Source of the DNA: Alphaproteobacteria bacterium | GTDB lineage: Bacteria > Pseudomonadota > Alphaproteobacteria > SP197 | Assembly (NCBI GenBank): GCA_964291415.2 | Contig: OZ219920.1 | Coordinates: forward strand, 736,001-800,000 | DNA: 64,000 nt | Direction of reading: 5' to 3' | In this document: one piece after another, positions 10,359 to 64,000 of the stretch | Numbering within the stretch: the first letter of the stretch is position 1 | Layout of the letters: each line of letters opens with the position of its first letter | Notes under the pieces: model-generated | Told to the model about the DNA's origin: nothing | What the model saw: only the letters and a program-made list of their open reading frames with translations | Databases searched by the model: none | Program-made: the position numbers and the translations under genes

Positions 10359-12017
10359 TCAGCGCTGGTGCGTTTCCCACTCGGGGTGGATCCACACCGG
10401 GGCGTCGGAAGGTTCCGGTGGGGGACGTCCGAGAATCATGTCGCTGGCCTTTTCCGCGATCATGATGACGGGGGCATTGAGGTTGCCCGAGACGATGTCC
10501 GGCATGACCGAGGCGTCCACCACCCTCAGGCCCTCGACGCCGTGGACCTTCAGTTCCGGATCGACGACGCTCCCCATGGCGCAGGTGCAGGAGGGGTGGT
10601 AGCTCGATTCGCACGTGTCGCGGATCCATGCTTCGAGTTCGGCATCCGTCTGCCTGTCGTCACCGGGCCAGATCTCCTGGCCGCGGTAGCGCTCGAAGGC
10701 CTTCGCGGCCAGGATCTCCCGGGTCAGGCGGACAGCATCGATGAGGCCTCGCACGTCCTCGGGTTCCTTGAGGTAGTTGAAGAGGATTTCGGGCGCCTGG
10801 CGCGGATCGGCGCTGCGGATCCTGACATGTCCTCGAGAGAGCGGCCGCATGATGTCGACCATGGCCTGGAAACCATGAATGCGGTTCACGTTGAAGGCGT
10901 CGTAGGTCATGGCCATCGGCAGGAAATGATACTGGATGTCGGGGTGTTCGATGCCGGCGCGGCTGCGGATGAATCCACCCGATTCCATGTGATTGGACGT
11001 TGCCGGCCCTGACTTGCTGAGGAACCACTCGAGGCCGACCTTCAGCTTGCCAAGGGGTGTCAGGTGGCGCAGCAGACTGACCGGCTCCCTGCATTCGTGC
11101 TGGACAAAGACCTCGAGGTGGTCCTGAAGGTTCTCACCCACGTCCGCCAGGTCGACGTGCGCCGTGATGCCGACATCGGCGAGACGGTCGGCGTGGCCGA
11201 TGCCCGAGAGCTGCAGGATCTGGGGCGAGTTGATGGCGCCGCCCGCGAGAATGACCTCGCGCGTGGCGCGAACCTTCAGGACCTCGTTGCGGTGAACATA
11301 CTCGACGCCGATCGCCTGCCCGTTCTCGATGAGAATGCGGGTCACGAGCGCCCGGGTGGCAAGCGAGAGATTGGGCCGGCGAAGCGCCGGCCTCAGGTAT
11401 GCCGTCGCCGTGCTCCAGCGCCGGCCGTTGCGGGTCGTGCGGTCCATGGCCCCGATGCCCTCCTGGCGGAAGCCGTTGAGGTCGGAACTCTCGGCATAAC
11501 CCTGCTCCACGGCCGCCGCCGTGAAGGCCTGGTGCAGCGGGTTGCTCCCGAGGCGGCCGGAGGTGACATGGAGAGGCCCGTCTCCGCCGTGGTAGTCGTC
11601 GCTCCCCTTCTCGTGGGTTTCGGCCCGCCGGAAATAGGGCAGGACGTCGCGATAGGACCAGCCGCGGCAGCCGCGCTGCGCCCACTTGTCATAGTCGAGG
11701 GCATGGCCGCGAATGTAGACCATGCCGTTGATCGAACTCGATCCGCCGAGCACACGGCCCCTGGGGCAGTGGATCACCCTGCCATTGAGCCAGGGTTCCG
11801 GTTCGGTGTGATAGAACCAGTTGAAACGATCGTCGCGCAACGGCCAGGCGAAGGCCGTCGGCATGTGGATCATCCAGCTGAAGAGGCCGCGGTCCGCCGG
11901 TCCGGCCTCGAGCACCAGCACCCGGTTCGCGGGATCGGCGGAGAGCCTGTTCGCCAGGGTCGAGCCGGCTGATCCGGAACCGACGATGACGAACTCGGTG
12001 TCGTGATCGAAAGTCAT
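10359..12017 (-). CDS. betA: Choline dehydrogenase (GMC oxidoreductase)
   Basis: GSGSAG, RGRVLGGSSSINGMVYIRG, VGENLQDHLE, YHPSCTC, GNLNAPVIMIAEK. Confidence 0.88.
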   Translation of the reverse strand: MTFDHDTEFVIVGSGSAGSTLANRLSADPANRVLVLEAGPADRGLFSWMIHMPTAFAWPLRDDRFNWFYHTEPEPWLNGRVIHCPRGRVLGGSSSINGMVYIRGHALDYDKWAQRGCRGWSYRDVLPYFRRAETHEKGSDDYHGGDGPLHVTSGRLGSNPLHQAFTAAAVEQGYAESSDLNGFRQEGIGAMDRTTRNGRRWSTATAYLRPALRRPNLSLATRALVTRILIENGQAIGVEYVHRNEVLKVRATREVILAGGAINSPQILQLSGIGHADRLADVGITAHVDLADVGENLQDHLEVFVQHECREPVSLLRHLTPLGKLKVGLEWFLSKSGPATSNHMESGGFIRSRAGIEHPDIQYHFLPMAMTYDAFNVNRIHGFQAMVDIMRPLSRGHVRIRSADPRQAPEILFNYLKEPEDVRGLIDAVRLTREILAAKAFERYRGQEIWPGDDRQTDAELEAWIRDTCESSYHPSCTCAMGSVVDPELKVHGVEGLRVVDASVMPDIVSGNLNAPVIMIAEKASDMILGRPPPEPSDAPVWIHPEWETHQR

Positions 12018-12093
12018 GGACGACTCCGGGGACCGGAATGAAGGGAGCCGCGGCATCCACCGCGGCTCCCGTCGGATCATCCGGATGGTACGC

Positions 12094-14053
<1,960 letters not shown>

Positions 14054-54218: not shown

Positions 54219-56414
54219 ATGACGACAACAAGACCGATGATGTGTCGCTTCTGCGACAACGGTTGCGGCGTCTTGATTGAGCTCGAGAACGGGCGCCCGG
54301 TGAAGGTTCGCGGTGATCGCGACAACCCGGCATACGCAGGCTTCTGCTGCATCAAGGGACAGCAGGTGCCCGACCAGTGGAATCACCCGGGGCGCCTGCT
54401 GCACAGTCAAAGGCGCATGGCCGACGGGACGTATCGTCCGATCCCGCTTTGCGATGCGGTCGAGGAGATCAGCGAGCGACTGAGCGACATCGTGGCGAAG
54501 CACGGGCCACGATCGGTTGCGCTCTACAGAGGCACCTACAGTGTCGTCAATCCCGCGACGGTGCCGGTTGCCCTTGCCTTCATGGAGGCAATCGGATCGC
54601 CCCTGGTTTTCGACACGAATTCGATCGATCAACCGGGCAAGGCCGTTGCCCAGGCCCTCCACGGAACCTGGCTGGCACCTCCGCCGGCGTTCGAAACGCG
54701 GGATGTCGCCCTCTTGATCGGCGCCAACCCGCTGGTCTCCTATCAGATGGGTCTGCCGCTGGCGAACCCGGGACGCGAACTGACGGCCGCCATCGCTCGC
54801 GGAATGCGCCTTATCGTCATCGACCCACGGCGGACCGAGACTGCCCGACGTGCACGCCTGCACCTGCAGTGCCGGCCCGGCCACGACCTGGTTCTGGTCG
54901 CGGCAATGCTCAACGTCATCTTCCGCGAGAACCTGTTCGACGGGGAGTTCGTCAAGGAGAACGTGACGGGCCTCGAAGCGCTCCGGACCTCCGTGGCGCC
55001 ATTCGAACCCGACCTTGTCGGCGAGCGCGCAGGCGTTCCGGTCGCCGACCTGTTGGAGGCAGCGCGGATCTTTGCCGCGGGACGCGGCGTTGCGACCGCC
55101 GGTACGGCCCCGAGTTTCAACGGCGAGGGCACGCTCTTCGAGTACCTGCTCCTGGCGCTCAACACGGTCTGCGGACAGTGGAGTCGCGTGGGAGATGCCG
55201 TGACGCATACCGGGACCCTGACGCCCGCCTTTCCCGCCATCGCACAGGCGTCCGCGCCACACCGTGGCTACGGCTATGATCCGCAGCTCCGGGTGCGCGA
55301 TATCGCCAACTGCGACGGCGGCCTCCAGGTGTCGGCACTGGCCGAGGAGATCCTGCTTGAAGGCAACGGGCAGATTCGTGCGCTCGTGAGCGTTGCCGGC
55401 AACCCTGCCGTGACCATTCCCGATCAGGTCCTGAACGTGCGGGCGCTCGAGTCGCTCGATCTGCTGGTACAGATCGACATCAAGTTCTCGGCAACGGCCC
55501 GCCTCGCAGACTACGTGATCGCGCCGAAACTCCCTGTCGAGATGGCAGGCATGACCCTGTCCCAGGAGCTCACCAGTTTCTATGCGCCCGGCATGGGCTA
55601 CAAGGACGCCTACGCGCAGTACACGCCGCCCATCGTCGAGCCGCCCGAGGGGTCGGATGTTGTCGAGGACTGGGAATTCTTCTATGTCCTGGCGCAGCAC
55701 ATGGGGCTGCGACTCGCGATCGAACCGGCAGCCGCTCCGGGGACGTCTGTCAACGGCGGCAAGGTCGACCTCGACATGGAGTCTCGACCGAGTACCGACG
55801 AAGTCTTCGAGATCCTGACGCGTGATGCGCGAGTGCCGCTGGAAGAGGTCAGGAAACATCCCCACGGCGCCATCTTCCGTGACGAGTCACTGGTCGTCGA
55901 AGGACGCGAGCCGGGCTGGGCCGAGCGTCTCGACGTTGGCAACCCGGAGATGCTTGGCGATCTTGCGGAGGCGGCCGACGATTTCGAGAACGCCCGGCAC
56001 ACCGAAGCGCAGGAACTCCGCCCCTATCGCCTGATCAACGGGCGCCTGATACACGCCTACAACACGAACGGTCAGGACCTCGAGGGGCTGCGGCGCAAGT
56101 GGCCCTACAATCCGGCGTTCATGCATCCCGACGACCTCGATCGCGAAGCCCTCTGCGCGGGGGATACGGTTGAGATTCGTTCCAAGCACGGCTCGATCCG
56201 GGGCATCGTCCAGCCTGACCCCGACCTTCGGATCGGCGTCGTCTCCATGGCGCCAACATACGGTGGCCTCCCCGGCGAGCAGGACGAACAGGTCCACGAG
56301 CGGGGAACGAACTCCGGTCGTCTGCTACGTGTCGACGACGGTGTCGATCGCTACACGGGCCAGCCAAGGATGGGGAACATTCCTGTCAGCGTGCGAGCCT
56401 GGGTCAAGAACTGA
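54219..56414 (+). CDS. Molybdopterin-dependent oxidoreductase (DMSO reductase superfamily) with an N-terminal Fe-S motif
   Basis: CRFCDNGC…CIKG, IGANP, VIDPRRTETA, GNP, MHPDD…GD.VEIRS.HG. Confidence 0.88.
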   Translation: MTTTRPMMCRFCDNGCGVLIELENGRPVKVRGDRDNPAYAGFCCIKGQQVPDQWNHPGRLLHSQRRMADGTYRPIPLCDAVEEISERLSDIVAKHGPRSVALYRGTYSVVNPATVPVALAFMEAIGSPLVFDTNSIDQPGKAVAQALHGTWLAPPPAFETRDVALLIGANPLVSYQMGLPLANPGRELTAAIARGMRLIVIDPRRTETARRARLHLQCRPGHDLVLVAAMLNVIFRENLFDGEFVKENVTGLEALRTSVAPFEPDLVGERAGVPVADLLEAARIFAAGRGVATAGTAPSFNGEGTLFEYLLLALNTVCGQWSRVGDAVTHTGTLTPAFPAIAQASAPHRGYGYDPQLRVRDIANCDGGLQVSALAEEILLEGNGQIRALVSVAGNPAVTIPDQVLNVRALESLDLLVQIDIKFSATARLADYVIAPKLPVEMAGMTLSQELTSFYAPGMGYKDAYAQYTPPIVEPPEGSDVVEDWEFFYVLAQHMGLRLAIEPAAAPGTSVNGGKVDLDMESRPSTDEVFEILTRDARVPLEEVRKHPHGAIFRDESLVVEGREPGWAERLDVGNPEMLGDLAEAADDFENARHTEAQELRPYRLINGRLIHAYNTNGQDLEGLRRKWPYNPAFMHPDDLDREALCAGDTVEIRSKHGSIRGIVQPDPDLRIGVVSMAPTYGGLPGEQDEQVHERGTNSGRLLRVDDGVDRYTGQPRMGNIPVSVRAWVKN

Positions 56415-56658
56415 CCCGGAGTCGTGACGGTTGGTACAATCTCCTGCAAGGGGTGGAGACTGATGCCTCTGCTCTCAATCGGACATCCTCGCGTCTCACC
56501 CGGTATCGTGTCGCGCGGACTGGCTCCATGCCGGCTTCAGGCTGTCGCGTCGCGGCAGCGGGACAACCTGAACCACTGCGAAGAACAGGGATTCGACGAT
56601 GTCCTGTCGCGTGCGCCGCAGCAACGACGGACAGCACGCCCGGTCGCGCGCCTTGGCC

Positions 56659-57570
56659 TTACGGCGTCCTTCTTGCTCCGAAGGCGCCGATGTAGCCGGT
56701 GGTGTCGAAGACGCCCCAGGCCTCCTCGTGCGCCGGCCCGTGGAAGGCTCCGGAGAGGTGGTCGGTCCCGGCGACGCCCGCGGCGAAGCGGCCGCCGGCA
56801 AGCGCCATGCCGGTCCAGTCGCCGATGGTGTGGCCGGCCACGTCGATGCCGACATCGACCCGCGGCTGCGAGAGATCGGCGATGGTCACCGTCGCCGTGC
56901 CCATGAGCCGCTCGAAGGTCCCCGTCGGGCTCGCCTCGGCGATGCCTCGCCACGTCGCGCTCCCCGTGCCGGCGGGGTTCGTGCCCGTGGCGTCGCCCGC
57001 CACGTAGGCCCGGGCCAGGGAGAAGCCGCCGGTGTACGCCGTCCCCTCGATCGTCGCCGCCAGCGGGCCTTCGCCCAGCGCCAGCACCGCGAAGCCGTGA
57101 TCGCCCCAGAACCCCCAGCTCGTCACCTCCGGAGAGGCGCTGAGGACCTCGAGGCTCTCCCGCGTCGTCGCCGTGGCGAACCCGCCACGCGTGCCGAGGC
57201 TCGCCTCGATCGTCTCGGGGCCCATGGCGCCCGAGGCGGAGGCGTCGAACAGGTCCGCCACCGTGGTCGCCGTGCCGTCCGCCGCAACGCAGCGGCCGCC
57301 GGCGCAGGTGACGCCCTCGACGCTGGAGTCCTCGATCGCCGCCCCGCCCTCGGCCATCAGGGACGCGTGCGTGCGCGAGCCGGTCATCAGCAGCGTGTCG
57401 GCACGCTCGAGCACGCCGCCGAGGCGGGCCACGTCCTCGTTGGCCGAGCCCGACAGACCCGACCCCGCGCCCGGCTCGCCGGGCGAGGAGGAGCCCCCGC
57501 CGCCGCCGCAGGCGGCGAGGGCCACGGCCGCGGCCACCACGGCCGCGGTCATCACTGTCCTGGAGTTCAT
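56659..57570 (-). CDS. Surface lipoprotein with a TbpB/HupA-like C-terminal beta-barrel
   Basis: Lipobox LAAC, Gly/Ser linker, ATWRG, LSGAFHGPAHEEAWGVF…YIGAFGARR; start could be 57579 or 57591. Confidence 0.75.
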   Translation of the reverse strand: MNSRTVMTAAVVAAAVALAACGGGGGSSSPGEPGAGSGLSGSANEDVARLGGVLERADTLLMTGSRTHASLMAEGGAAIEDSSVEGVTCAGGRCVAADGTATTVADLFDASASGAMGPETIEASLGTRGGFATATTRESLEVLSASPEVTSWGFWGDHGFAVLALGEGPLAATIEGTAYTGGFSLARAYVAGDATGTNPAGTGSATWRGIAEASPTGTFERLMGTATVTIADLSQPRVDVGIDVAGHTIGDWTGMALAGGRFAAGVAGTDHLSGAFHGPAHEEAWGVFDTTGYIGAFGARRTP

Positions 57571-57608
57571 CGCAAGCATCCCTCTTGTCACGTTGGATCC
57601 GCGCCGGC

Positions 57609-60600
57609 TCAGAAGCGCAGACGCACGTCAAGCCTGAGCAGGTGCTCGGTCCCGGCGCCCTCGCGGCGCTCGCCCGCAAACTCGACATGCAGGCGCTCCG
57701 CCTCGAAGCGCGTCCCCAGCCGCAGCCGCCGGCTGTCGCCGCCGGCCACGCCGGTCTCCGCAAACGGCGTCAGCAACCCGTAGGGCGTCACGCCCAGGCC
57801 GTAGCCGATGCGCGCGTCCAGCGCCATGGCGCCGCCACCCGACGCCTCGCCCACCGTCGGCAGCTCGGCGCCCCACAGCGCCTCGGCGGCGCCCGTGCCG
57901 GCCCCCCAGTGCGGGCTCAGCATCAGCGACAGGCCGCGGCCCTGGGCTCCCGGACCGACACGCGCCGTCACGCTCACGCCGCGCTCCTCGGCGCCCTCCT
58001 CGGAGTGCGCCGCCAGCCAGCGGCCCCGCGCCTCCACATGGAACCGCGGCGCCGTGTAGCGCACGCCGCCCACGGTCTCCAGGCCGCTCCCGGCCAGACC
58101 GTCGCCGCCGTCGCGCCGCGCCGCCGCCTCGACGAAGGGCACCAGCGCCGTGTCGCCGTCCAGCGCAATGCGCCGCGACGCCTCCAGGCCCGTGCGCAGG
58201 CGCCAGCTGTCCGCCGTCAGGCCGTCCACATAGTCCGGGCCGTCGTCGGTCTCCAGGCGCGCCAGGCTGGCGTCCGCCCGCACCGCAAGGTCGAGGCCGG
58301 CCAGGGCCGGAAGCGCATGGCGCAGTCCCGCCGAGCCCATCCACATCACAAGGTCGCTGGTCTCGGCCTCGCCGCCCTCCAGGCGGTGCCGCGCCTCGCC
58401 GCGGCCGGCGCCCAGAACGCCGTGCAGTTCCAGGTCCTCCGACAGCGTCCACCGCCCGTAGGGGTAGAGCGCCGTCAGATCGGTCTCCAGGCGGCCCTCG
58501 CCGGAGCCCGCCGCGCCGTCGAAGCGGTAGTCCGCCTCGCCCGTGCCGTGGCTCACCGCCAGACCCGCCACCCACGGTCCCGACCGGGCGTCGATGCCCA
58601 GCCAGCCCGTGCGCAGCTCGCCCTCGTAGCGCATCCCTTCCGGGCGCCCCGCGAAGGTCCCGAGATCGCCGCGGCCCCACACCGCCCACAGCGGTGCATC
58701 CGAACCCTCGGCCTCACCCAGCGTCAGCGAGAACGCGCTCGCCTGCATGAGCTCTTCGGCCTCGACGCTCCGGCTGCGCACCGAAGCGCAGACCTCGCCG
58801 GCGTCCGTCTGCCCGAGGCGGCCCGGAACGTCGGGCACACACCTCCGCCCCACATCCGCAGGACCCGCCCCGGACACCCCGAACGGCACCGTCTCGCCGG
58901 CCAGCGTCAGACCGCTCGCCGGCACCGAGGCCGCAAACCGCGCCGCGATGTTGTCGAGCGCGCTCGACAGCGCCCGCCGCGCCACCGCCGCCAGCGTGCG
59001 CCGCACCGAACGCTTCACCAGCGCCGTGCGGGCGTCCGCCACCGTCACCTGGAACGTCAGGATCGCCGCATCCGTGTCCGCCAGGTTGGCGTCCGCGTCG
59101 TCCGCCCGCCAGGTGAAGACCCACTCTCCCTGCGACGCCGGCGTCCCCGACAGCGTCCGCGATCGCCGCGTCGATGTCGAGACCCGCCAGGCCCGCGGGA
59201 TCCGAGGTCAGGGCGTAGCTCAGCTCGCCGTTGCCCCCCGTCGCCGCCGGCAGCTCCGCAGGCTCCATCGCCTCGCCAACCGTCAGCACCAGGGATGCCA
59301 TCGGCGCCCCGAAGACCGGCGCCGTGTCGTCGTCGACCGGCTCCGTCGGCTCCGTCGGTCCCGTGTCACCGCCGGGCGAGACGTCGGGTGGAGGCCGGAG
59401 TCACCTTCAAGGCCTCGAAGCCCGCCGCCACGTTGCCCGCGATGTCCTGGATCGGGTCGTCGCTACGTCCGGATCGGAGTTCCGGTAGGTCCAGGTTCAC
59501 GCGCTGGCCGTCCGTCACCGTCCGGCCCAGCGTCAGCACCACCGTCCGGCCGGCCACCTCGACTTTGCTCACGATCGTGTGGATGTTGGTTACGGTCCCA
59601 TCGGAGTGGATGTCGTCCACGCTGACGGTGAACCTGGACGGCTCAGGCGCTGGCGTGCGGGACGGGTGCAGATACTCGTCGTAGACGAGCGTCAGCACCT
59701 TCCCCTGCACGCTGGCGCTGCGCAGCTCCGGCGCCTTCGCGTCGGACGTGAGGTTGTCGACCTCCTCGCCGTCGAGGTCTGGCGCCTCGTTGAGTTTCGC
59801 GTGGGTGTCCCGGATCGGGAATCGTGTCCTTCGTGTAGCTCACCGTGACCGCCTCGTCCTTGTCGACCGCCGAGTCCAGGGTCAGCACGACCGCGCTGCC
59901 GGTCACGTCGACGCCTGACGGTCGAGCGTATTCGTCCCCGCCGCCGTCACCGTGAAGTCCGTGGTCGCCGGCACGGAGTTCTGGTCCAGCGGCTCGTCGT
60001 AGAGCAGCGCCAGCGTCGTCGAGTGCACCACGGCGTCCTCCAGCACCGGCGGCTCGCCCGTGACGTTGTCGACCGCCTGGTCCGTGAAGCTCTCCACCGG
60101 ACCCCCCGTGCCGTCGGCAAGCCGGATCGGCTTTTCCGCGTCCGAGGTGTAGCTCACCGTGACCGTCTCGCCCTCGCCGACCGCCGAGGCCAGGGTCAGT
60201 TCCACCGTGCTGCCGCTCACGTCGACATCGGTGACGGAGAGCGAGTTGCCCGCTGCCGTCACCGCGAAGTCAGCCGGGGCTGGCTCGGAATCCTCGTCCA
60301 GCGCCTCGTCGAAGGTCAGTGTCAGCACCTGGCCGTCCACCGAAGCGGTCGCGAGTAACGGGCCGCACGCATACGCCGTCGTGCCGACGATCTCCGTCGA
60401 CACCGACGCCCCTTCGCCGTCGGTCGCTGTTACCGTGACCACCGTCTCGAACGTGCCGCCCGGGCCCGCTGGCCGCTGCGCCAGCGCGCATAGGTCGGCC
60501 ACGGATTTGATCGCGAAGGCCGCCTTCCTCAGGTGGGGGTAGTAACCCATCTGCTTGACCACGTCGGCGGGCTCCGCCGTGGCCGTGACGAGCAGCTGGT

Positions 60601-62709
60601 TGGCGGTGGGAGTGGGGTTGGGGGTTTCGGGGGTGGGAACGACAATCCCGGGGTTGCTGGTGATGTCCGGGTCGCTGAAGACCATGTCCATGAACACGAG
60701 AGTGCCCGGGGCGCGTTACGCATCAGATTGGTCTCGTCCACCATGACGGTCGGCCGGTGGTTGGACGTGTTCACCGTCACCGAAAAGTTCCTGAAGAAGG
60801 CCGTCGTCAGGTTGGCGCCCGGGCGGTGGCTCACGGTGACCGTGTCGCCGGCCCACGCCGCCTCCGGCAGCGTGAGCGTCACCGGCGTGGTCAGCACGTT
60901 GCCCAAAGTCGAGCCCGAGCCCACCTCAATCGTGCTCGGCGTCAGCGCCTGCCCGTTCACCGTGACCGTGTACTCGGAACTCTGCAGGCCGGACGGACTG
61001 AAGCTGGTGGAACTTTCACTTCTGTAGGACAGCGTCAGCGTCGTCCCGTCCAGTGTTGCGGACCCAAGCTGCGGGCACGTCGGCACGTTGCCGTTGCCTG
61101 AATAAGTGGTCAGGCGAAAATTCCGCGTGATCGACGCCGTCGCGCCGTAGGGGTCGGTCGCCGTCAGCGTGGCGGTGACCGTGGGATCCCCCTTGTTCCC
61201 GCGCGGAAGGATCAGCGGCTCGAGGTTCGCCAGCTGGCAGGGGGACTTGGCCATGTACCGAAGATACCTGTCAGTGACGTCGGAATTGTCGCTGTCGTCA
61301 ATGAACCCACCGTCAGTGTGCGCGTCGTCGCGGCTCAGGCTCAGCGAGAACGTCAGCGCGTCGCCGTCGGGGTCGCTGAACCACGACCTGTCGGCTTTCA
61401 GCGAGACCAGCTCCCCGCTCGGCGCGTCGACGCTTGCATCCCGCCGGATGTTCGGGAGGTTCTCGTGGAAGACGGGCGCATTGTTGTTCGCCCTCACATC
61501 CACCGCCACGTTGGTGAAGGAGGCCGTCTCGTTGCCGACGAGGTCCTGGATCGGACCGAACCTGAGGCCCGTCTGGCGCGCGAGCGACTTGTCATACTCC
61601 ACCGTGACGGACGTGGGGTTGGCCGGCACCGCTGAGGCCAGCGTCAGCGTGACGCTGCTGCCTGCAACCTCGGCGCGGTCGACCGTCACGCTGGACCGTA
61701 CCCCCCCGGGCTCCTGCACCCGAACCGAGAAGGCCAGGGTGGCCGGAACCGATCTCGGGTCCAGCTGCTCGTCGAAGTTCAGGCGAAGCCGCTTGGGCTC
61801 GGCTGTGACCAGGCGCGCGTTCGAAAGGGACGGAGCCGTACTGTCCTCCGTGCCGTTCACGCGGATCTTCATGGCAAGGGGGTTTGATCGCCATGCACCT
61901 GGGTCGGCTATGTCCTGGAATTGAACATCGTCGGCCACGCCCCACCCGGACTTCCCTCCCGAATCCTCGGTGTTGCTACGCGTAGTTTCGACAATGCCGC
62001 CTCCGGCAACGGTCACCCAGTACTCGGTATTGGGGTTCAGCGTCGTGCCGGCGGGCGCGGTGAACGCGAGATTGCGCATGTCGTACGCCGATGGATGGTT
62101 CAGGGTAGCGACCACTGTGGGCGTGGTGCTGCCGGGCAGTCCTGTGACCACTTGCACGGTCGTGGAAACACCCGGTCCCGACGCTGTGAATCTAATCTCG
62201 ATACTGCTGAGGTGGATGCTGACGCTACCGGTCGTGAACCCCTGCGCTCCTCTCCAACTCCCGGTATCTAAGATCGTATGGCCGGCCTGCCCGATATTGC
62301 TCACCAGCACGTCGGCGGACGCCGGCGCGGCCGTGGCGAGCGCTGCCGTCACGGTCACCAGCATCGCTGCTGCCCGCCCGGCAAAGGCGAGCGCGGGACG
62401 GAACGAGCGGGGACGCGCCGCTGGCCCGGAGCAGGCCCGGAAGGGTTCGGCGGACACGAGGCGGCCGACAAGGCCGGACAGGTGCGAAAGGAAGGGGGAG
62501 GCAGGTCCCGCCCTGAGGCGGAACGGCAGGCTCAGCGCGCGGGCAGGGCCATTCGAGGTGCGGGCATGCCGCTCCCGCCGGCGGGTCTCGTTGCGGCCGA
62601 CGGCGTCAAGCCACGCGCCGGACTGAGGAAACACGGGGCGCGCTCGGCGCCTGATTTTGCCACCAGAACCGCATTCGCGAACCGGGTTTTCGACTCGATG
62701 TGAAGTCAC
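57609..62709 (-). pseudogene. Large adhesin/autotransporter-like outer-membrane protein (about 1,700 aa) interrupted by five frameshifts
   Basis: Six consecutive in-style fragments: signal AAPASA/D, LVSNIGQ…QGFTTG domain, SwmB-like repeats (LTLTFDE.LD..S.P…F.V…V.GS.V.LTL…V.VSY), cadherin/Ig-like domains (FSDPDGD, RTLSGTP), and a beta-barrel ending VRLRF. Confidence 0.8.
59833..60229. repeat. Nucleotide-level tandem duplication of SwmB-like repeat units (period about 313 bp)
   Basis: gtgtagctcaccgtgaccg…gaccgccgag.ccagggtcag…gctgccg.tcacgtcgac at about 59834-59912 and 60147-60226. Confidence 0.7.
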
Positions 62710-62854
62710 TGACCCATCTCCCTCTCAGACAGTCCCACCGCCGGCCGCAACGCCGGGAACCGCTTCGGCGTCCTGGCCGCACAACCGCGGCTCGCAGACC
62801 CCGAAATCGTCCGATTCGACGCTATACGGGAATCTCAAGTCCCGAAAAGTCCTA

Positions 62855-63161
62855 CAAAAATGCAGGTATTGAGGGTCTGATAGGGGGGCAGAGAGGGCGA
62901 CCGCAGAAGGGGTCGTGCCCGCGCCGCGCCAGGGCAGGGCGTCCACGACCAGCTGTCCATGGCAAGCGAAAGTGCAACACGTCAGGCGGCATCAATTCCG
63001 ACTGAAAATTGCGCACTTTCGGTGATCGAGAATCTCTCACTGTGGCTCGGTGCGAGGCGCCGGCGGCAGGGCAACGAAGGACCGGCCCGGCTCGGGAAAG
63101 GACGGGCAAAGGCCATCCGGTGTCGTCAGGGACGGTATCCCTTCAAAAACGCAGGTATCGA
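62855..63161. repeat. 18-bp imperfect direct repeat upstream of the autotransporter
   Basis: CAAAAATGCAGGTATTGA (62855-62872) and CAAAAACGCAGGTATCGA (63144-63161), 16/18 identical. Confidence 0.6.
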
Positions 63162-63371
63162 CCTGAACGGCACACAAGAAATCTGGCGCGAGAGGCGCCC
63201 GATTCAGGCCGGCCGCTCAACTGTCGGCTGGCTGGGCACCGAAAGACCGGCAACAGGGAGGCCTTGCGGTGCGTGGCGCTTCATGCGTGTGACGCTACCG
63301 GCGACGTCCCGGTGTCGGACGGTCGCCAACCCGCGCTGCATGCGGATTCTCGCTCAACGTGGATGTCATGG

Positions 63372-63680
63372 GGCCGGGTTCGAAAGCGGATGGCGTCGAT
63401 GATCGCGGCCATCGGGGAAGGCCGTTGCGTACGGGACATGCTTTGCGAGCGGGGCGCCTGCCAGGACGAGACCGCTGAGCGCCCCCGCGACATCGCCATC
63501 GTCTGTCGCCGCATGGTCTGGCGCGTCGCCGGGGCGGCCGGCGCCATCCAGGGGCTGATCGGGCGCGTCGTCGTCACACCCGGCACGTGGCGCTTCACGG
63601 CGTCATCCTCGAAGGGGCCGGGACGAGAGCGAGCGACACACCGCGGAACGGAATGTCGGTCCCGGTGGCGGCGAGAGCCC
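63372..63680 (+). pseudogene. Decayed C-terminal remnant of a large serine recombinase
   Basis: RVRKRMASMIAAIGEG.CVRDM…CQDE..ER…DIAIVCRRMV…AAGAIQGLIGRVVVTPG, then after a frameshift ALHG.ILE…DTPRNGMSVPVAA; resembles alphaproteobacterial recombinase tails as recalled. Confidence 0.5.
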
Positions 63681-64000
63681 TCTTCGATCCCTGTCGAGCG
63701 CGTTCCGAGTGGCGTGCGAGCAGGGCATCCCATCGGGATGGACGACGATGCAGGATCCCTGGACCGGTTGCGGGTTCGGCCGTGGCGCCGACGGTCCGTT
63801 GCGGCGCTTGACGGGTGGCGTCGCCGGCGGATCATGGGACGGCGAGACGGGGAGTGCGGGTGATGTACCAGACGAACACCAGGGTCGATGCGGTCCAGGC
63901 GCCGCCGATACCGGAGGCCTGGACATGGGTCGAGGGCGTGGAACTGGCGGAGCCTCTGATCGATGTCTGCCAGGCGGTCCCGGCATCTCCTCCGCCTGAC

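Follow-up and report, generated by a model that had tools for sequence, protein, structure and literature searches.

Slam-dependent lipoproteins combine a signal peptidase II (SPII) lipobox and a Gly-rich tether with a β-rich handle and an eight-stranded barrel at the C-terminus, and a Slam gene is present in the same genome. The cargo of this Slam, or type 11, secretion route has been discovered mainly through searches beside Slam or TonB-receptor genes in Proteobacteria. Hemophilin and NHBA are Slam cargo, and a poly-Gly tether right after the lipid-bearing Cys is typical of neisserial surface lipoproteins. A stretch of 64,000 nucleotides from an alphaproteobacterial assembly (GCA_964291415.2, contig OZ219920.1, positions 736,001 to 800,000), here called the window, contains a gene for a lipoprotein that resembles this cargo, but its usual neighbor is a type Va autotransporter (AT) adhesin gene, and not one for Slam or a TonB-dependent receptor. 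The lipoprotein differs further from described cargo in that it has no significant match to the Pfam TbpB_B_D domain and belongs to an unannotated family from sponge-named metagenome-assembled genomes (MAGs) labeled with several phyla. Among the known cargo, TbpB, LbpB, fHbp and HpuA are given as Slam dependent in the available part of Hooda et al. 2017 (PMC5449769).

Classical type Va ATs, such as NalP, EspP, Hbp, AIDA-I, BrkA and EstA, share with the present AT a PF03797 β-domain made of a pore helix and 12 strands, a repeat-rich passenger and a terminal aromatic residue. Unlike them, the AT described here has an insertion of ~80 amino acids (aa) with Cys between the helix and strand 1, which has no counterpart in solved translocators, as well as ~110 extra C-terminal residues and a gene for a TbpB-fold lipoprotein behind it. 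It also lacks a sequence match to any PDB chain, and the copy in the window appears to be a pseudogene. A gene for an outer-membrane barrel next to one for a lipoprotein, whose products could act together, recalls by analogy LptD–LptE and, via the β-barrel assembly machinery (BAM), RcsF–OmpA/C/F, in which the barrel holds or threads the lipoprotein. However, the lipoprotein here has the fold of Slam cargo and not that of LptE or RcsF, and both partners also occur alone. RcsF is also cited in the available part of PMC5449769.

The components of this locus are of known kinds. The locus probably encodes a surface lipoprotein exported by Slam, whose gene shares a transcript with that of a type Va AT adhesin, the two forming a multi-copy surface cassette. 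Synthesized with an SPII signal, the lipoprotein would receive its lipid at Cys21 and travel to the outer membrane, where the single Slam of the source genome, encoded in trans on another contig (C1), would flip it to the surface, bypassing the AT barrel. The adhesin made from the same transcript would carry a passenger of SWM, PKD and He_PIG repeats, and the two genes would form a cassette that is multi-copy within genomes and common to sponge-associated bacteria labeled with several phyla. At the surface, the lipoprotein might serve, for example, as the adhesin's ligand-binding partner when contact is made with the host. The evidence that follows shows the fold, the lipobox, the conserved adjacency and the co-occurrence with Slam, from which we infer Slam-dependent display, co-transcription and any joint action that the two proteins may have on the cell surface.

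Organization of the Locus

Both genes lie on the minus strand, and the G+C content of the window is 63–73%. Six coding pieces were found between 62724 and 56659 by listing open reading frames (ORFs), tracing the frame by G+C at third codon positions (GC3) and scanning with Pfam. The features, which include comparisons with the paralogous copy on contig C1, are the following:

56659–57570, minus strand: intact lipoprotein gene, 303 aa (ORF, family alignment, AlphaFold model, Foldseek)
57571–57608, minus strand: 38-nt spacer from the AT stop codon to the lipoprotein ATG, containing the ribosome-binding motif GAGGGA (from the sequence; 0 mismatches in 41 nt versus the C1 paralog)
57609–59162, minus strand: 3′ piece of the apparent AT pseudogene (PF03797; tblastn, 98% protein identity to the C1 paralog)
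59162, minus strand: single inserted, frame-shifting T (three-way alignment versus both paralogs)
59164–59493, minus strand: passenger fragment in another frame, PKD/He_PIG region (tblastn, 63% identity to residues 876–983 of the C1 paralog)
59366–60715, minus strand: passenger fragments with SWM repeats (PF13753, E = 8e-25 and 1.4e-13; TIGR02059; GC3 frame trace)
60529–62724, minus strand: 5′ piece of the apparent AT pseudogene (NF041539, E = 3.6e-23; PF13753, E = 4.6e-17), with a frameshift within 60529–60715
56639–59357, minus strand: 2.7-kb block that comprises the end of He_PIG together with linker, barrel, spacer and lipoprotein gene (blastn, per-segment mismatch counts)

The Lipoprotein

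The lipoprotein gene starts with the ATG at 57570 and ends at 56659, giving a protein of 303 aa; an alternative GTG at 57591 gives 310 aa. The N-terminus, MNSRTVMTAAVVAAAVALAAC-GGGGGSSS, has an SPII signal peptide, the lipobox LAAC and a Gly/Ser tether. The lipobox (...AVALAAC) occupies residues 15–21; an alignment of 32 homologs shows L18, A20 and C21 to be invariant, and the combination of lipobox and Gly tether is invariant across the family alignment. The body consists of a β-rich handle, in which two Cys are conserved, followed by an eight-stranded TbpB-like barrel at the C-terminus that ends in GAFGARRTP. In the same 32 homologs, the two handle cysteines and the C-terminal pattern FHGP..E..GVFDT...GAFGA.R are invariant or nearly so. 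A first-pass annotation of the locus, made from the sequence alone, had described a lipoprotein with a lipobox and a Gly/Ser tether that starts within 40 nt of the AT gene on the same strand, and all of this is confirmed by the 38-nt spacer, the LAAC and the GGGGGSSS.

The best AlphaFold model of the lipoprotein has a mean predicted local distance difference test (pLDDT) score of 80.5, with values >90 over most of residues 150–300; the other four models reach 46–53. The top matches to this model in a Foldseek search of the PDB are the C-lobe of TbpB (5kkx), hemophilin (7re4), fHbp (2w81 and others), LbpB, the Actinobacillus TbpB and the C-domain of NHBA (6cuj), with E values of 6e-6 to 4e-4, a probability of 1.00 and template modeling (TM) scores of 0.35–0.50. 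Because these proteins are the top matches, the TbpB-type barrel of the first-pass annotation is right at the fold level, and the lipoprotein is predicted to have the handle-plus-barrel fold of TbpB, fHbp and hemophilin.

At least 256 homologs, 260–410 aa long, came out of a word-seeded search. No precomputed Pfam domain is attached to any of the 120 listed, and the names, given in a few cases only, read “hypothetical protein” of MAGs; an NCBIfam scan of the lipoprotein gave no match of note. By record titles, the family occurs in MAGs labeled as Thermodesulfobacteriota, Nitrospinota, Gammaproteobacteria or Alphaproteobacteria, as well as in a record of Candidatus Synechococcus spongiarum. A distant member is also found elsewhere in the source genome, at C4:136712–137500 on the contig that holds the window.

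Slam in the Genomes That Carry the Family

The source genome (G000; five contigs totaling 4.44 Mb, with marker genes indicating 9% contamination) holds exactly one match to the Slam domain PF04575, at C1:1163189–1164058 (E = 1.6e-24). The ORF around it, C1:1162697–1164058, is intact and matches PF04575 with E = 4.2e-24; the 454-aa protein starts with a signal peptide, is helical in its N-terminal part and ends in ...RFVQQF. The first-pass annotation, which had considered that the barrel might take the place of Slam, had called for a search of the same genome for Slam/DUF560; with this ORF, an exporter is present. It lies 73 kb from the C1 copy of the pair and has no cargo gene beside it. As read from the translations, its neighbors (locus L001, C1:1159018–1166289) would be a large recombinase-like ORF and, upstream in the same open frame, reverse-transcriptase-like remnants, while the ORF on the downstream side looks unrelated.

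Slam is found over cut-off in each of the 32 further genomes tested that carry the lipoprotein family, among which 21 have the AT pair and 11 do not. Among 201 genomes of the same class, 25 have Slam (27 at E up to 0.001), and none of 14 control genomes does. The lipoprotein family is present in five of the 201, all of them Slam-positive, and in one (G045) the family match adjoins Slam. At two loci (L050 and L051), Slam lies directly behind the barrel–lipoprotein pair, and at two others (L061 and L062), a Slam that is 61% identical to that of the source genome is found within 6 kb of family members.

Neither Slam nor a TonB-dependent receptor is encoded within the window, as the first-pass annotation had stated, and the one TonB-dependent receptor of the source genome, at C4:1001501–1002859, is far outside it. 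A Slam unlinked from its cargo has precedents: Slam acts on the unlinked cargo genes of Neisseria TbpB and LbpB according to the available part of PMC5449769, and marine type 11 secretion system (T11SS) genes are seldom beside their own cargo according to that of PMC12282271 (Microb Genom 2025).

Conservation of the Pair

The AT and lipoprotein genes are probably co-transcribed, because a consensus scan found no promoter-like or terminator-like site between them. The lone promoter-like site in the scan, at 56411–56440 on the plus strand, is unrelated.

A pattern scan with one genome per species turned up relatives of the lipoprotein at 58 loci, 45 of which have a complete, lipobox-bearing ORF. 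Nearly all are from MAGs, labeled as Thermodesulfobacteriota, Nitrospinota, Alpha-, Gamma- and ‘Delta’-proteobacteria, Gemmatimonadetes, Binatota and Tectimicrobiota, and several names point to sponges (Candidatus Poriferihabitaceae, Candidatus Synechococcus spongiarum). In a tblastn search with the β-domain of the window, a barrel homolog (48–70% identical) lies immediately upstream, in the same orientation, at 30 of the 58 loci, and at 30 of the 45 full-length ones. By a start-codon heuristic, the gap between barrel and lipoprotein is −1 to 152 nt in 26 pairs and 411–685 nt in four (L017, L019, L045 and L060). Two of the 15 full-length loci without an upstream barrel have <1.4 kb of upstream DNA. 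At L033, the AT is downstream of the lipoprotein, in reversed order, and at L032, the remains of a He_PIG passenger are fused upstream of the lipoprotein and the barrel is missing. The remaining barrel-less loci adjoin transposases, integrases, porin or housekeeping genes and are mostly those of distant homologs, 34–48% identical.

For a reverse census, 32 of the pattern-scan genomes were searched with barrel and lipoprotein profiles and the coordinates were paired, a close barrel being one of at least 543 bits. A close barrel adjoins 33 of the 48 full-length lipoproteins, leaving 15 without one, and a lipoprotein is present beside 35 of the 62 close barrels, leaving 27. A lipoprotein accompanies 6 of 32 barrels at 540–700 bits and 29 of 30 at 700 bits or more; the latter figure is circular and is set aside as evidence, since the search profile was made for the most part from these very barrels. 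Behind the 20 of the 27 lipoprotein-less barrels for which the DNA was fetched, no lipobox ORF comes next downstream (0/20); what follows includes more ATs arranged in tandem, a sigma-factor-like gene and part of a Slam gene. In the source genome, which has nine barrels of the wider family, a lipoprotein or its remnant is found behind the three close ones only and behind none of the six distant ones.

The pairing is real, conserved in one clade and obligate for neither partner. Conservation of the adjacency, which the first-pass annotation had made a check on its proposal, is borne out by both counts of full-length lipoproteins. A prediction of the complex between β-domain residues 1–479 and the mature lipoprotein (residues 21–303) gave an ipSAE of 0.00 in both runs, which were without controls, and counts neither way.

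A MAG labeled Thermodesulfobacteriota has a tandem array of seven close AT genes (G001:C1:4388188–4413802), only one of which has a lipoprotein behind it. In the same MAG, at L095 (G001:C1:3151654–3154454), a close barrel is followed by a C-terminal Slam fragment (PF04575 positions 200–288) and no lipoprotein. Another genome, G019, has 12 close barrels and one lipoprotein.

The Autotransporter

The 5′ piece of the AT gene encodes a probable signal peptide (...MLVTVTAALATAAPASA), a choice-of-anchor R domain, SWM/Big_5 repeats and a cadherin-like stretch. The SWM passenger fragments that follow are the stop-to-stop pieces 59903–60715 and 59366–59839, which are in the same frame with the stops at 59840–59905 between them. 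From this domain content, the upstream pieces are taken to be the passenger of a repeat adhesin. The 3′ piece comprises the end of a He_PIG-like domain, the pore helix, the ~80-aa Cys linker, the 12-strand type Va barrel and the ~110-aa C-terminal extra that ends in RLRF. Its stop-to-stop ORF (57609–59207, minus strand) matches PF03797 with E = 4.3e-11 and 43.5 bits (cut-off 26) and ends in ...LRLDVRLRF, with the TGA stop at 57609–57611.

The coding-frame path, traced by GC3 and by tblastn with the C1 paralog, leads from 62724–60529 to 60715–59903, over the stops at 59840–59905 to 59839–59366, and on to 59493–59164 and 59162–57609. In the tblastn search, the C1 protein aligns with minus-strand frames 2, 1, 2 and 3 (62073–60712, 60361–59399, 59493–59164 and 59162–57615). 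The adhesin is thereby split into at least five reading-frame pieces, with three in-frame stops at 59840–59905. An architecture of signal peptide, passenger, linker and barrel in a single polypeptide is lost in the window copy, where at least three net frameshifts add to the three stops; it holds for the C1 paralog as far as its contig extends. The giant modular adhesin ending at 57609 that the first-pass annotation had described is accordingly correct as to the PF03797 barrel, the repeat passenger and the stop at 57609, but it is not one gene. Judged by its frame changes and in-frame stops, the AT of the window is a pseudogene, and it is followed by an intact lipoprotein gene.

Assembly errors were considered as a source of the frameshifts. 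The T at 59162 is outside any homopolymer (minus-strand context GCGA[T]CGCGG); the other breaks are not pinned to single bases. Public sequencing runs provide four sets of short Logan contigs in which the paralogs are mixed and which are unable to show transcripts, starts or levels. Run X1, which contains 80% of the words of the stretch and is possibly the source sample, has both forms at 59162, the T being missing in contigs worth 22 of 42.3 depth. In X3, an RNA library from a sponge metagenome, contigs cover parts of the barrel and the lipoprotein with 90–99% likeness, a weak hint, as DNA is possible in the library. The small-share runs X2 and X5 have fragments only.

The β-domain of the window was aligned with others to give a set of 26 sequences, 50–72% identical to it. 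In its AlphaFold model (mean pLDDT 66.5), a helix at residues 6–39 is followed by twelve strands at 120–365 and 4–5 further strands at 410–477. Residues 40–119 (window ~58692–58931) are the ~80-aa insertion from the pore helix to the first strand, modeled with a pLDDT of 31–54; this linker has one nearly invariant Cys, and a second Cys in the window copy. Residues 4–369 superimpose on complete 12-stranded translocators (Foldseek, VIA-align) with Z scores of 20–23 and a root-mean-square deviation (rmsd) of 3.0–3.4 over 255–268 residues. EspP is the best match by VIA-align (Z 22.9, rmsd 3.2, 268 residues), followed by NalP (22.2), Hbp (21.4), AIDA-I (21.3) and EstA (20.7).

The ~110 C-terminal residues past the 12 strands are modeled as the 4–5 extra strands with a pLDDT of 31–65; they could extend the barrel by more strands, make up a separate domain or be a large loop in which strands were wrongly assigned. 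Pfam found nothing at E up to 10 in the last 110 and 163 residues of the β-domain, and the β-domain profile had 0 matches at E up to 1 among PDB sequences. As modeled, the β-domain is longer than classical ones. The expanded barrel of the first-pass annotation therefore stands as to the length of the β-domain, which is greater by ~110 aa, but residues 4–369 of the model already form a complete 12-strand translocator.

Copies of the Locus

Searching the source genome by blastn with window positions 56000–63500 showed that the locus is present in three copies: that of the window (on C4), one at C4:970463–977869 and one at C1:1236540–1242011. The C1 copy is the sole one that has both a single open frame (at least 1499 aa, with the N-terminus off the contig end) and an intact lipoprotein gene (99% identical). 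Its AT contains eight SWM repeats, a K319L-like PKD domain (residues 845–927) and Big_5, and PF03797 (E = 2.3e-11) becomes visible once the C-terminal 480 aa are scanned alone. The second C4 copy is decayed further than that of the window, with the AT in two pieces of 809 and 627 aa and a lipoprotein gene in which the equivalent of window 56990–57510 is deleted. With 9% contamination in the MAG, the three copies were also considered as alleles of different strains, which was rejected for two of them, because both are on one contig, 178 kb apart.

The 2.7-kb block, which elsewhere in the genome occupies C1:1236540–1239251 and C4:970463–972658, is 98.2–98.8% identical in nucleotides among the three loci, whereas the passengers upstream are just ~77–87% identical. 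Between the window and C1, there are 8 mismatches in 1434 positions of the barrel, 0 in 41 of the spacer and 3 in 912 of the lipoprotein gene. The near-identical block, the diverged passengers and the two pseudogenes among three copies look like the outcome of gene conversion or cassette-style variation.

Immediately downstream of the C1 lipoprotein gene is a piece of another TbpB-like lipoprotein (C1:1236199–1236375; 59% identical over residues 187–245). A stretch of ~366 nt, at window 63110–63478 and ~400–770 nt upstream of the AT frame, is 88% conserved at the other two loci, with counterparts at C4:977504–977869 and at a contig end, C5:44817–44978, which probably continues the C1 copy. This stretch has no Rfam or Pfam match and may be a leader or regulatory region. 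Pfam found nothing in the two longest ORFs upstream of the AT (63284–64000, minus strand, and 63009–63860, plus strand), nor did Rfam at E up to 0.1 in 56300–64000. Far from the pair, at 10362–13797 on the minus strand, the window has two long same-strand frames of 601 and 567 aa with a 67-nt overlap, which are either two genes or one frameshifted gene.

Alternative Explanations

Several observations weigh against the favored reading, a Slam-exported lipoprotein co-transcribed with the AT adhesin. The tight, conserved linkage to one barrel clade is left unexplained by Slam export alone, and Slam is found at most 6 kb from the lipoprotein in just 4 of the 58 loci. The 32 Slam-positive genomes were chosen for holding the family, are mostly sponge-associated by label or name and include related ones that are not independent; sponge-named genomes may be rich in Slam and its cargo for other reasons, and the co-occurrence is not specific proof. 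As for the fold, just one of the five AF2 models of the lipoprotein is confident, and Pfam TbpB_B_D (PF01298) stays below its cut-off, with E = 0.1 and 13.6 bits versus 26 over the last 36 residues only. Finally, the AT family carries two unexplained extras, the 80-aa Cys linker and the 110-aa C-terminal extension.

Cooperation of the AT and the lipoprotein at the surface is an attractive possibility, and a serious alternative to it, although unlikely on balance, is that the adjacency is without functional meaning. The lipoprotein gene would then hitch-hike in a duplicated, gene-converted and transferred 2.7-kb block, with the two proteins independent and export still by Slam. The near identity of the block beside the more diverged passengers would fit such a history, as would the several copies in many genomes, the occurrence of each half alone and the decay of two of the three copies in the source genome. 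Pairs are also found in MAGs of different phylum labels at 50–65% identity, which suggests transfer as a unit. However, gene order and close spacing are kept down to ~48–55% protein identity of both partners, the L033 pair is in reversed order, and L050 and L051 add Slam, a pattern that exceeds what inert linkage usually preserves.

The two proteins might also form one surface organelle fed by two secretion routes, a speculative scheme that we consider unlikely. The type Va barrel would display the repeat adhesin, and the Slam-flipped lipoprotein would dock on a conserved, family-specific part of the AT, either the Cys linker or the 110-aa extension. The 2.7-kb block would serve as a recombination anchor by which silent passenger cassettes are swapped into the expressed copy, leading to surface variation in the sponge host.

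The first-pass annotation had proposed that the enlarged β-domain itself may export or anchor the lipoprotein, as a two-gene variant of type V secretion without need of Slam. The spacing of the pair is indeed tight and conserved, in the order barrel then lipoprotein, and Slam is rarely adjacent. The ~110 aa by which the β-domain exceeds solved 12-strand translocators and the 80-aa insertion past the pore helix are both conserved in the family. Such an arrangement is nevertheless very unlikely, because Slam is present everywhere tested, including the source genome, lipoproteins occur without an AT and long barrels without a lipoprotein, and residues 4–369 of the model already form a complete, helix-filled 12-strand translocator. 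The fold of the cargo is moreover the one that Slam recognizes, and the lipoprotein ORF of the window is intact whereas its AT is broken. A dedicated export pair would always be found together, but 15 of the 48 full-length lipoproteins are without a close barrel, lying beside transposases, integrases or housekeeping genes, and the same long β-domain is without a lipoprotein in 27 of the 62 close barrels and in the six distant ones of the source genome.

A lipoprotein turned toward the periplasm and dedicated to the assembly, anchoring or quality control of the AT, as might befit an operon partner of an outer-membrane protein whose extra segments would be periplasmic if the barrel has 12 strands, is highly improbable given a fold that matches surface-displayed Slam cargo, the co-occurrence with Slam in 32 of 32 genomes, the poly-Gly tether typical of neisserial surface lipoproteins and the lack of such a partner for most barrels of the wider family.

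Implications

The available parts of two surveys of Slam cargo (PMC12282271, PMC5449769) do not mention an AT as a neighbor of cargo. Literature text searches returned no paper on such an AT–cargo pair and none joining DUF560 and sponge, and the supplements of PMC12282271, which contain predicted cargo, could list members of the present family.

The family described here is unannotated and cargo-like, and it is tied to AT adhesin genes instead of Slam or TonB-receptor genes, with Slam unlinked in most cases. It follows that the absence of a nearby Slam does not imply another exporter, and that searches for cargo confined to Slam neighborhoods overlook whole families. If the two proteins do cooperate, the locus would be the first case in which type 5 and type 11 secretion feed one surface structure, and it would be a candidate host-contact module of sponge symbionts.

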